Shown here: piece by piece, positions 8,118-61,565 of the stretch
How positions within the stretch are numbered: the first letter of the stretch is position 1
Layout of the letters: the number at the start of each line of letters is the position of its first letter
Sequence record: OZ335963.1
Origin: a phage
Length of the DNA stretch: 64,000 nucleotides
Strand: one strand, 5' to 3'
The notes under the pieces: generated by a model
What the model was told of the DNA's origin: nothing
The model's input: only the letters and a program-made list of their open reading frames with translations
Database searches by the model: none
Position numbers and translations under genes: made by a program

Positions 8118-8315
8118 TCATTTTACACCATTCCAAATTGTTTCAACCACAGATTTTAAGCCATTTTGATGAATGTCCATTCCGACAACCGCCATCAAAT
8201 AAATTCCAACTACAACTGAACCTAAGGCAAAAATCAGCATGAAAATGAATAAAGCCGGAAAAATATTATCAAAAAACCATTCCATAAATGTAAAAGCACT
8301 GCGTTTACGCTTCAT
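8118..8315 (-). CDS. small membrane protein, 65 aa
   Basis: Start at ATG with GAGGAAAAT SD (MKRKRSAFTFMEWFF...); hydrophobic core. Confidence 0.45.
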   Translation of the reverse strand: MKRKRSAFTFMEWFFDNIFPALFIFMLIFALGSVVVGIYLMAVVGMDIHQNGLKSVVETIWNGVK

Positions 8316-8322
8316 ATTTTCC

Positions 8323-8436
8323 TCACATAAATCCAAAGTAAGCGTTTAATACATCAATCATTAAAACGATTGGGAATATACTCAAAACTACTAGTATTAT
8401 AACTACATTCCATATAGCTTTAACAATCTTTTTCAT
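8323..8436 (-). CDS. small membrane peptide, 37 aa
   Basis: MKKIVKAIWNVVIILVVLSIFPIVLMIDVLNAYFGFM downstream of GGAGGAACAG SD; the longer track ORF is read-through of the promoter. Confidence 0.35.
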   Translation of the reverse strand: MKKIVKAIWNVVIILVVLSIFPIVLMIDVLNAYFGFM

Positions 8437-8464
8437 TTTCTGTTCCTCCGTAGTTGATAGGGTA

Positions 8465-8494
8465 ATAATACCACAGAGGAACAGTCTTGTAAAC
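8465..8494 (-). promoter_or_regulatory. T4 early-type promoter (GTTTAC, 18 bp, TATTAT)
   Basis: Minus-sense GTTTAC 8489-8494, TATTAT 8465-8470. Confidence 0.5.
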
Positions 8495-8679
8495 AACTTT
8501 TTTAAAAATATTCGTAATAAATGTGAATACCAACTACTACTGCTGAAACTTGCGCAACCCACCATGCACAAGCAATAAGTACAGAATTCAAAATTTTCAT
8601 AATAACCTCATCACAAAAGTAAATACTAAACAAATCAATGGAATACTAATTAACCAAACAAAACACCACCATAATGAAC

Positions 8680-8970: not shown

Positions 8971-9000
8971 ATAGTACCACAGTCCTTGTGGTATGTAAAC
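8971..9000 (-). promoter_or_regulatory. T4 early-type promoter (GTTTAC, 18 bp, TACTAT)
   Basis: Minus-sense GTTTAC 8995-9000, TACTAT 8971-8976. Confidence 0.5.
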
Positions 9001-36209: not shown

Positions 36210-36239
36210 ATAGTACCACAGAGGAACAGTCTTGTAAAC
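36210..36239 (-). promoter_or_regulatory. T4 early-type promoter (GTTTAC, 18 bp, TACTAT)
   Basis: Minus-sense GTTTAC 36234-36239, TACTAT 36210-36215. Confidence 0.5.
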
Positions 36240-60977: not shown

Positions 60978-61505
60978 TTATGCGAGTACCGTCTTTAACC
61001 GTTCTTCAAACTTCCGAAGAGTATTTTGGCGTTCAGCTCTTTGCTTTTTGTAAGTTTCAATACGCTCTGAAATGAGAGAGTATCGTTCATTTACTGATTC
61101 TTTCATAAAATCAGGAATTTCACGAGAAGCTTTAATCTCGTCAAATTTATCAATAACAGCTTGCTCTTCAGCAATTAAGTTATCATACATTAAAATATCT
61201 TTCTTGATGAACTCAATATCTTCTTGAGTTACACGAGATAATTTAGATGCTTTATCCTTTTTGTACTGTTCGTTAGTATCACGAGACCAGTGTAATGTAC
61301 GATTTTTATTCGTATTTTTGTAAATTTCTACAATACCGATCTCATCAATAATAACGATCCAATTCCAACGGGATTTGTAAATTTGTCCTCCATCAACAGT
61401 GATTTCACCTCCGATTGAGATGTCATTAAAGAACTTGCTTTGTGCTTCAGATTTAAATTTACCATCATTGTAATTTACCAAGTTGAAAATATCTTTAGCG
61501 TTCAT
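60978..61505 (-). CDS. hypothetical protein, 175 aa, C-terminal coiled coil
   Basis: ORF after early promoter; tail ...ERIETYKKQRAERQNTLRKFEERLKTVLA. Confidence 0.5.
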   Translation of the reverse strand: MNAKDIFNLVNYNDGKFKSEAQSKFFNDISIGGEITVDGGQIYKSRWNWIVIIDEIGIVEIYKNTNKNRTLHWSRDTNEQYKKDKASKLSRVTQEDIEFIKKDILMYDNLIAEEQAVIDKFDEIKASREIPDFMKESVNERYSLISERIETYKKQRAERQNTLRKFEERLKTVLA

Positions 61506-61525
61506 TTTCTGTTCCTCCGTAGTTG

Positions 61526-61555
61526 ATAGAGTAATAATACCACAGAGGAACAGTC
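61526..61555 (-). promoter_or_regulatory. T4 early-type promoter (GTTTAC, 18 bp, TATTAT) with SD-complementary spacer
   Basis: Minus-sense GTTTAC 61550-61555, TATTAT 61526-61531; spacer CTGTTCCTC complementary to downstream SD GGAGGAACAG. Confidence 0.5.
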
Positions 61556-61565
61556 TTGTAAACCA

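Follow-up and report, generated by a model that had tools for sequence, protein, structure and literature searches.

An early promoter of a T4-like phage carries a hairpin predicted to hide the ndd.4 SD in read-through transcripts and not in its own

Can an early promoter of a T4-type phage also decide which of the transcripts that cross it are translated? The question is raised by the 66-nt intergenic region from ndd.5 to ndd.4 in the 64,000-nt stretch of phage DNA (record OZ335963.1) that was analysed here, referred to as the window, where a sequence-only reading had proposed that the spacer of a promoter is complementary to the SD of the gene that follows. The window is from a Tequatrovirus (T4-like), which hundreds of Tequatrovirus genomes match at 95-98.5% identity with Shigella phage sb2 as the top match to the region, and its minus-strand gene order is that of T4: denB, an 87-aa ORF, ndd.6, ndd.5, ndd.4, ndd.3/2a, ndd.1 and ndd. 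The ndd.4 gene, a member of this early denB-ndd cluster, is found in 596 phage records, and its product carries the T4 annotation of predicted inner membrane. In mRNA sense (minus strand) the site is laid out as aaaaaagttg TTTACA agaCTGTTCCTCTGTGG TATTAT taccctatcaACTACGGAGGAACAGaaa ATG, and its parts, in window coordinates, are as follows.

8502 to 8600, minus strand: ndd.5, the upstream gene, stop codon TAA at 8504-8502 (ORF list, T4 annotation)
8494 to 8510, minus strand: A+T-rich tract 5' of the -35, UP-element-like by sequence, including the ndd.5 stop TAA
8488 to 8493, minus strand: -35 hexamer TTTACA (promoter scan); GTTTAC at 8494-8489 is the T4 early-promoter form
8470 to 8484, minus strand: hairpin 5' arm CUGUUCCUCUGUGGU, made of spacer positions 4-17 and the first T of the -10
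8465 to 8470, minus strand: -10 hexamer TATTAT (promoter scan), with TGG just before it as an extended -10 (TGn)
8455 to 8469, minus strand: hairpin loop of 15 nt, within which lie the greater part of the -10, the predicted +1 and the beginning of the conserved CTATCAAC leader motif
8440 to 8454, minus strand: hairpin 3' arm ACUACGGAGGAACAG, containing the ndd.4 SD GGAGG at 8449-8445
8323 to 8436, minus strand: ndd.4, encoding a 37-aa hydrophobic peptide, ATG at 8436-8434 (ORF list, phrog_3098)

The promoter has the GTTTAC...gtggTAttaT shape typical of T4 early promoters, with a hexamer spacing of 17 nt and 10 of the 12 hexamer positions matching sigma-70, the best match in the 3.5-kb neighbourhood. 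The same cassette is also present in T4 and its relatives, a T4-type early promoter is annotated at the ndd.4 cassette in the related phage record SA21RB, and AT-rich upstream regions are a described part both of T4 early promoters (PMC2988021) and of PeSLs (PMC2839356). That it is an early promoter which carries the hairpin, as had been claimed, agrees with the TTTACA-17-TATTAT arrangement with TGn and with the place of ndd.4 in the early cluster. The predicted +1 is an A at about 8458, placed the standard 7 nt beyond the -10 (T4 consensus numbering, PMC1524935), and 8 nt separate GGAGG from the ndd.4 ATG.

The two sequences on which the proposal was built are present in the form described, CTGTTCCTC at 8484-8476 within the 17-nt spacer and GGAGGAACAG at 8449-8440, with 27 nt between the 9-mers. 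The complementarity of spacer and SD is likewise there, but its extent had been underestimated, since the stem has 15 bp rather than 9-10 bp, of which 13 are Watson-Crick and 2 are G.U pairs, and its 5' arm holds both the anti-SD CCUC and the TGn extended -10. The free energy of the stem is -23.2 kcal/mol, compared with -8.4 +/- 2.4 kcal/mol in shuffled sequences (z -6.1), none of 200 shuffles being equally stable, and the hairpin appears in MFE and centroid folds alike in contexts of 76-150 nt. The window contains the pattern CTGTTCCTC-N27-GAGGAACAG at two places, 8440-8484 and 61509-61553, and 100 dinucleotide shuffles do not contain it at all. The spacer-SD pairing is real and lies far beyond chance. 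A comparison of the ndd.4 cassette with Rfam families gave sub-threshold chance matches only.

Folding predictions for the two kinds of RNA that could carry this SD differ sharply. In read-through RNA the SD is predicted to be paired with a probability of about 1.0, and opening the segment from SD to AUG would cost 18.7-18.8 kcal/mol, whereas RNA initiated at the promoter, from about 8458, has a leader without predicted structure and an opening cost of 0.8 kcal/mol. The sequence-only reading had held that transcripts entering from upstream could fold so as to hide the SD, and the model agrees (P(SD unpaired) 0.00, opening 18.7 kcal/mol); it had also held that the promoter's own transcripts begin in the loop and leave the SD free, which is likewise what is predicted, with the +1 at about 8458 in the loop and an opening of 0.8 kcal/mol. 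Comparing the folds of read-through and promoter-initiated 5' ends was one of the checks that it had named, and the outcome is about 18.7 versus 0.8 kcal/mol. The difference between the isoforms holds for any plausible transcription start site, since no part of the 5' arm extends downstream of the first base of the -10. Every prediction of that reading that can be put to an in silico test is supported.

The next early promoter upstream is at 8999, and since the terminator scan predicts no intrinsic terminator between it and the ndd.4 cassette, read-through is to be expected. The ndd.5 stop ends 17 nt ahead of the hairpin, so that a terminating ribosome, given its footprint, should not melt the stem. 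Downstream, Hinton's table places the middle promoter Pndd.3 at T4 166702, within ndd.4, and the genes that follow therefore have a middle-mode supply of their own. That ndd.4 itself has an early promoter only is consistent with an immediate-early-only design.

The pairing was followed through the ndd.4 orthologs, whose arms read as follows in four genera.

Tequatrovirus (window): 5' arm CUGUUCCUCUGUGGU, 3' arm ACUACGGAGGAACAG
Dhakavirus (JS98, IME341, ESCO10, MX01, C6): 5' arm CAUCUCCAUUAG, 3' arm CUAAUGGAGAUG
Gaprivervirus (VR7, P479, RZ): 5' arm CAUCUCCGGUGGUUG, 3' arm CAACUACUGGAGAUG
Kanagawavirus (CIP9, MY742), weaker: 5' arm UUACAUCCAUU, 3' arm AAUGGAGGUGAA

Judged from the sequences, spacer-SD pairing is kept at ndd.4 in all four genera despite different arm sequences, the Kanagawavirus version being weak at about -10 to -12 kcal/mol. 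Folding of 11 ndd.4 orthologs, a set confined to Tequatro-, Dhaka- and Gaprivervirus, gave predicted opening costs of 12.4-21.6 kcal/mol for read-through RNA versus 0.8-2.0 kcal/mol for promoter-initiated RNA. When upstream and leader sequences were swapped between genera, duplexes of Tequatrovirus with the others reached -6 to -16 kcal/mol, with most of them between -6 and -11, compared with -14 to -26 kcal/mol for the cognate pairs. Between Tequatrovirus and Gaprivervirus the anti-SD shifts its register in the spacer by about 8 nt, and the stems are therefore not position-by-position homologs.

Variation inside Tequatrovirus is thin, as searches of IMG/VR and of metagenome contigs for the exact pattern gave 5 loci each. 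Eight distinct orthologous ndd.4 cassettes were available in the genus, and the nine rows of alignment A2 consist of seven of these together with two nrdC.8 paralog cassettes. Over the nine variants 97.8% of arm cells are paired; the internal changes are three C/U exchanges opposite G, each of which keeps the pair, and a terminal C-G pair is absent in three variants. No change in alignment A2 is double-sided, and shuffling gives no informative control for it. Between Dhakavirus and Gaprivervirus there is one compensatory exchange of U-A for G-C, accompanied by three one-sided compatible changes; for alignment A1, with its one compensatory pair, 34 of 500 shuffles score as high or higher. With covariation within genera this weak, the comparative case rests on the differences between genera and on the occlusion that is kept gene by gene. 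The between-genus differences in the arms could reflect wholesale replacement of cassettes by PeSL recombination and not stepwise compensation.

Whether other genes share the arrangement was assessed by ranking all 109 candidate gene starts on the minus strand of the window by the predicted cost of opening positions -14 to +3 in a context of -75 to +18. The five most occluded starts, all on the minus strand, were these.

ATG 61505, minus strand: nrdC.8 ortholog (ndd.4-type cassette), opening 23.2 kcal/mol
ATG 8436, minus strand: ndd.4, opening 18.8 kcal/mol
ATG 18623, minus strand: motB.2, opening 15.3 kcal/mol
ATG 23576, minus strand: modB, opening 14.8 kcal/mol
ATG 26280, minus strand: soc, the known late-promoter case, in fifth place, opening 13.5 kcal/mol

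Each of the top four of the 109 has an embedded early promoter, an enrichment with a hypergeometric p of 5.5e-4, or 3.3e-3 when paralogs are merged. The contrast between isoforms recurs in T4, where predicted opening falls from 15.3 kcal/mol in read-through to 2.8 kcal/mol in promoter-initiated RNA for motB.2 and from 16.7 to 2.4 kcal/mol for modB. In JS98 (Dhakavirus, 90 annotated genes) the ranking is headed by motB.2 at 19.4, gene 49 (a known case) at 18.0, modB at 17.7 and 55.6 at 15.6 kcal/mol, with nrdH at 13.8, nrdC.8 at 12.3 and soc at 10.6 kcal/mol further down (p 0.008), and in RB69 (Mosigvirus) motB.2 at 21.0 and modB at 19.4 kcal/mol are the top two of 23 genes. Here too the arms are not the same from genus to genus, as the motB.2 hairpin of these phages illustrates.

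motB.2, T4: UCCUCGGUUAGUUGUGGU / ACCAUAGCUACUGAGGA
motB.2, JS98: UUCUCCUCAUG / CAUGAGGAGAA
motB.2, RB69: UUCUCCUCUGGUU / AACCAGAGGAGAA

Ten promoter-proximal genes are orthologous in the window and JS98; four of them exceed 12 kcal/mol in both phages and the other six stay below 9 in both, for which the chance is 1/210; modB was paired in this comparison by synteny and annotation, as its first tblastn match is the modA paralog. Of the 18 early promoters of the window, 4 have significant complementarity of upstream and leader sequences, the outliers being P8493 and P61562 (z about -6) and P18679 (z -3.5), with P23631 marginal. Others in the window have hairpins that cross the -10 and end short of the SD, or small hairpins internal to the spacer. 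Spacer/leader complementarity as a general property of early promoters was rejected on the same count of 4 of 18. The SD-covering hairpin is thus gene-specific and conserved, which argues for a role at the ribosome-binding site. The ndd.4 element does not stand alone but belongs to a small conserved class (modB, motB.2 and nrdC.8, with 55.6 in JS98) and lies within the described PeSL cassettes.

The nrdC.8 ortholog of the window is preceded by a near copy of the ndd.4 cassette.

61509 to 61562, minus strand: paralogous promoter/hairpin/SD cassette, sharing with the ndd.4 cassette 62 of the 63 nt that run from the -35 to ATGAA

The gene that follows it (175 aa, ATG 61505) is the ortholog of JS98 nrdC.8, and opening is predicted to cost 19.7-23.2 kcal/mol in read-through RNA versus 0.8 kcal/mol in promoter-initiated RNA. 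At 36238 there is a chimeric cassette with the same spacer and 5' arm and another leader, which offers no pairing partner. BLAST places the cassette at 2-5 sites per genome. The sharing of a cassette by ndd.4 and nrdC.8 in both Tequatrovirus and Dhakavirus points to concerted evolution; the near-identical copy, the 36238 chimera and the shared cassettes show the expected signs of mobility.

Published work on the T4 nuclease RegB bears on the state of these SDs in the cell. In 2006 Durand et al. tried in vivo RegB cleavage on 68 of the 71 intergenic GGAG motifs and on 30 intergenic GGAU motifs of T4, and RegB cuts the SDs of modB and motB.2 and, 'moderately', that of nrdC.8 (PMC1702504), this last being a result for T4, while the ndd.4-type cassette is read at nrdC.8 of the window phage. 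RegB needs single-stranded targets and is blocked by secondary structure (PMC1702504, PMC3014915), and cleavage at these three genes therefore implies that isoforms with an open SD exist in vivo. The modB RNA behaves as structured and RegB-resistant in vitro and is cut in vivo, which its authors attributed to cleavage of nascent RNA (PMC1702504); a promoter-initiated isoform that lacks the 5' arm would fit as an alternative explanation. In time-resolved omics of T4, ModB is an early protein (PMC9697503). The RegB/S1 11-mer consensus GGAGAAUAAAA consists of GGA, G/U and an A-rich tail with C nearly excluded. At ndd.4, GGAGGAACAGA has the favourable G at positions 4-5 and a C at position 8, and it is predicted to be single-stranded in the short isoform only.

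A further indication of the level at which the hairpins act comes from comparing the two strands. In 10 of 16 such hairpins the sense RNA exceeds the antisense in stability by 2-10 kcal/mol; in the remaining six the two strands are within about 2 kcal/mol (four hairpins) or the antisense is more stable (two). For the T4 hairpin the values are -19.8 kcal/mol for sense and -10.7 kcal/mol for antisense. The bias toward the sense strand arises from G.U pairs, and it moderately favours a function of the sense RNA. A common operator for a repressor of early promoters was also considered and was rejected, as the inverted repeats differ from promoter to promoter.

Taken together, we favour, with a probability of roughly 0.6, a reading in which the ndd.4 hairpin acts as an isoform-specific translational gate in a T4-type, PeSL-like early promoter cassette; we infer the position of the start site and the existence and amount of read-through RNA and, from the folding and comparative data, the effect on translation. 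Transcripts that enter from upstream, from 8999 or from early or middle promoters of the rIIB/denB region, would carry both arms, fold the 15-bp hairpin and bury the SD, leaving ndd.4 untranslated. Polymerase at the embedded promoter would start in the loop and yield a translatable mRNA without the 5' arm, its 22-nt leader unstructured. With only the promoter-born mRNA translatable, Ndd.4 synthesis would be tied to the firing of its own immediate-early promoter, and would stop when early promoters shut off although read-through RNA persists. The GGAGG exposed on the short mRNA would be open to RegB as well. Such a gate may serve to limit the dosage or the timing of small or toxic early proteins. 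That modB, motB.2, ndd.4 and nrdC.8, with 55.6 in JS98, form a conserved 'immediate-early-only' class, each with an anti-SD in its own promoter spacer and each silent in all read-through RNA, whether delayed-early or middle, is a broader proposition to which we would give even odds.

The same hairpin could instead work on transcription, the PeSL stem-loop attenuating or terminating RNA synthesis from upstream and so insulating the cassette, with coverage of the SD incidental. Arbiol et al. described promoter-embedded stem-loops in the RB49/phi1 cassettes in 2010, one of which lowered lacZ expression from a transcriptional fusion to the same degree as rrnB T1 (PMC2839356), and Comeau et al. placed PeSLs around T4 ndd.4/.5 in 2014 (PMC4122927); the SA21RB record labels the ndd.4 hairpin a rho-independent terminator (WebGeSTer), and the window promoters 30767, 30279, 63003 and 17577 do have hairpins that stop short of the SD. 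We nevertheless regard this account as unlikely, since none of the orthologs has a U tract after the stem (the tail is AAAAUGAAAAAG here and GAUUAUGAAAAA in Dhaka- and Gaprivervirus) and since SD coverage is kept gene by gene across genera while the arms change, a constancy that an attenuator would not require. An intrinsic terminator in the strict sense was rejected on the missing U tract, the 15-nt loop and the silence of the terminator scan, and the WebGeSTer call in SA21RB is unsupported.

A role in RNA stability or processing, in which the hairpin protects the 3' end of ndd.6/ndd.5 mRNA after cleavage or shields the GGAG of the long transcript from RegB, is in our view improbable as the main function. 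Bacterial mRNAs are often protected by stable hairpins at their 3' ends. RegB cleaves the GGAG of early SDs and is stopped by structure (PMC3014915, PMC1702504), and GGAGGAACAGA combines the preferred G at 4-5 with an A-rich tail. Such a role, however, leaves unexplained why the promoter always sits where its own transcripts lose exactly the 5' arm, and with Pndd.3 inside ndd.4 the downstream genes can do without the long transcripts. Stabilisation and shielding from RegB are compatible with the gate and do not exclude it. Least probable, and in our judgement very much so, is a feature or by-product at the DNA level, an inverted repeat that serves PeSL recombination or protein binding or simply hitch-hikes, with no function in RNA. 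The cassette is indeed repeated (8493, 61562) and recombinant (36238), it is shared by ndd.4 and nrdC.8 in Tequatrovirus and Dhakavirus, and mini-circle recombination of PeSLs has been demonstrated (PMC2839356). In most versions, though, the G.U pairs markedly weaken the stem as DNA or as antisense RNA, the differences between the arms of different promoters make a common operator protein unlikely, and in different genera the complementarity always takes in the SD, at the same four genes. A translational gate may be partly compatible with attenuation, with RNA stabilisation or RegB shielding and with a DNA-level role in mobility.

T4 serves as the reference for temporal gene control, and the switch-off of its immediate-early proteins is only partly explained; the shut-off of early promoters has been called 'not completely understood', and RegB is dispensable (PMC3014915). 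If the gate operates as proposed, a defined set of early genes, including that of the ADP-ribosyltransferase ModB, would be translatable from their own promoters only, through a cis-encoded control that runs parallel to RegB, links translational shut-off to that of the early promoters and mirrors the late-gene switch of e, soc and 49. It would explain how tandem strong promoters in hyperplastic regions escape cumulative over-expression, and why some SDs, such as that of modB, behave as structured in vitro yet are sensitive to RegB in vivo (PMC1702504). It would also give mobile PeSL stem-loops a second function other than the published one. For annotation, such hairpins are currently recorded as terminators.

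Both parents of this design were known before, the PeSL cassettes and the promoter-embedded SD hairpins of T4, and what appears to be new is a version in an early promoter that covers the SD. A PeSL consists of an AT-rich tract, a strong early promoter, a stem-loop, an SD and an ATG, is repeated in hyperplastic regions and mediates gene shuffling (PMC2839356, PMC4122927), and the PST/T4 promoter consensus is TTTACW-N17-TAYWAT (PMC4122927). The ndd.4 cassette has aaaaaagttgTTTACA-N17-TATTAT behind an AT-rich upstream region, together with a stable stem-loop, an SD and start codon at its 3' end and genomic repeats beside exchanges, and T4 ndd.4/.5 was itself drawn as a PeSL-flanked exchange unit by Comeau et al. 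(PMC4122927 Fig. 6A). Like PeSLs, it packs promoter, stem-loop, SD and start codon into about 100 bp and is recombinogenic. The published stem-loops, however, take five positions, all upstream of the transcription start, and were read as terminators or attenuators (PMC2839356); those of PST/T4 PeSLs are drawn just upstream of the promoter, whereas the 3' arm at ndd.4 is transcribed leader that contains the SD and lacks a U tract.

The classical T4 examples of an SD that stays sequestered unless an embedded promoter frees it are e, soc, 49 and I-TevI (PMC3014915), and Edgell et al. state that the genes regulated in this way 'are all late genes' (PMC2988022). The sequence-only reading was therefore correct that T4 uses this logic at several genes, the documented cases being late genes with late promoters (PMC3014915, PMC2988022). 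A description of an early-promoter version was not found in the literature consulted, and an older T4 paper may have noted the spacer-SD complementarity. As at ndd.4, the SD or AUG of the late genes (e, soc, 49 and I-TevI, also segB and Aeh1 mobE) is paired with upstream sequence in read-through RNA, and the ndd.4 promoter, like theirs, lies inside the hairpin region, so that its own transcripts are predicted to lack the 5' strand and to be translatable. Opening energies are comparable, with soc at 13.5 kcal/mol in the window and soc and gene 49 at 10.6 and 18.0 kcal/mol in JS98, against 15-23 kcal/mol for the early-promoter cases of the window. The promoters differ: ndd.4 has a sigma-70 early promoter whose own spacer is the 5' arm, and the late genes have a gp55 late promoter (TATAAATA). 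RegB resembles the hairpin in that it targets the SD of early genes (GGAG) and ends their translation, but it is a trans-acting nuclease that attacks exposed SDs, whereas the ndd.4 hairpin would be a cis structure that silences the long isoform, and the two would be complementary. In the proposed model the timing of the known late-gene switch is inverted, as ndd.4 would be translated only right after infection and later read-through denied, whereas the known cases deny translation early and allow it late.

Two further early promoters in the window carry an upstream part that pairs with the SD or AUG of their own gene, and the predicted cost of opening the SD-to-AUG region is given here for read-through versus promoter-initiated RNA.

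18679-18620, minus strand: motB.2 early promoter (14.7 versus 2.8 kcal/mol)
23631-23573, minus strand: modB early promoter (14.1 versus 3.2 kcal/mol)

The pairing sequences at these two promoters are independent ones, and the pairing is also kept in T4, JS98 and RB69. The ndd.4 cassette itself is represented elsewhere in the window by one near-identical copy and one chimeric version.

61509-61562, minus strand: promoter/hairpin/SD cassette identical to that of ndd.4 at 62 of 63 nt
36238-36180, minus strand: chimeric early-promoter cassette with the -35 element and spacer agactgttcctctgtgg of the ndd.4 cassette

The gene 3' of the first copy (ATG at 61505, 175 amino acids, phrog_2274) is the ortholog of JS98 nrdC.8, and in JS98 the 5' half of the cassette is likewise common to ndd.4 and nrdC.8. 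The near-identity of the window cassettes, taken together with this common half, suggests concerted evolution of the two loci or cassette exchange between them. A T4-type nrdC.8 cassette and gene, with at least ~88% identity to the window, are also present in the 142-kb record PV654520 ("Pseudomonas phage vB_PSGBLB0006"), which appears to be a Tequatrovirus-like genome, although it is named as a Pseudomonas phage and carries no taxonomy. In the chimeric cassette the -10 element and leader (…ttggagaatgaaATG) differ from those of ndd.4, the partner of the anti-SD arm is absent, and occlusion of the SD is lost (5.7 versus 3.9 kcal/mol); this cassette seems to have arisen by recombination, with the breakpoint close to the -10 element.

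The annotated ndd.4 start in the T4 record (T4 166764, position 1750 of the extracted locus) is an upstream ATG within the 3' arm of the hairpin (ACUAUGGAGG). Since the corresponding codon (window 8451-8449) is ACG here and in most relatives, the comparison indicates that the conserved product is the 37-amino acid peptide starting at the downstream ATG. The orthologous hairpin of phage SA21RB (OL960580, 2902-2944 of the extracted locus) bears a WebGeSTer annotation as rho-independent terminator even though the stem lacks a 3' U tract; the label is probably a mis-annotation, one that other T4-like genome records may share.

Past the ndd.4 start lie two further features.

8396-8401, minus strand: TATAAT of a middle promoter inside ndd.4, predicted TSS ~8388
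8118-8315, minus strand: single 65-amino acid ORF

The first is the counterpart of the T4 middle promoter Pndd.3, with its TSS at T4 166702 (Hinton 2010, Table 1), and a middle-mode promoter for the genes past ndd.4 sits within the ndd.4 coding sequence. The second corresponds to a T4 segment (1886-2082 of the extracted locus) annotated as two genes, ndd.3 (26 amino acids) and ndd.2a (40 amino acids). T4 reads atgaa-cgtaaacgc in this region versus atgaaGcgtaaacgc in the window, apparently a 1-nt frameshift in the T4 reference; VR7 ndd.3 is annotated as 68 amino acids.

Many early-promoter leaders contain the motif CTATCAAC(TA) around +1, 4-6 nt past the -10 element.

8461-8452, 8967-8958 and 5322-5313: examples of the motif, found also in JS98, VR7 and RB69 cassettes

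Conserved between promoters and in four genera, it could act as an initial transcribed sequence, as an aid to promoter escape or as recombination homology.

Other early promoters of the window form stable hairpins that leave the SD untouched.

30767, 30279, 63003 and 17577: promoter-spanning hairpins enclosing the -10 element
8999, 13495 and 58575: spacer-internal hairpins CCACAAGGAnTGTGG

The hairpin CCAACAAGACU/AGUCUUGUUGG upstream of dmd is an example. These hairpins fit the published stem-loop subclasses of PeSL, the promoter-early stem-loop cassette of T4-type phages, in which the stem-loops are read as terminators or attenuators.
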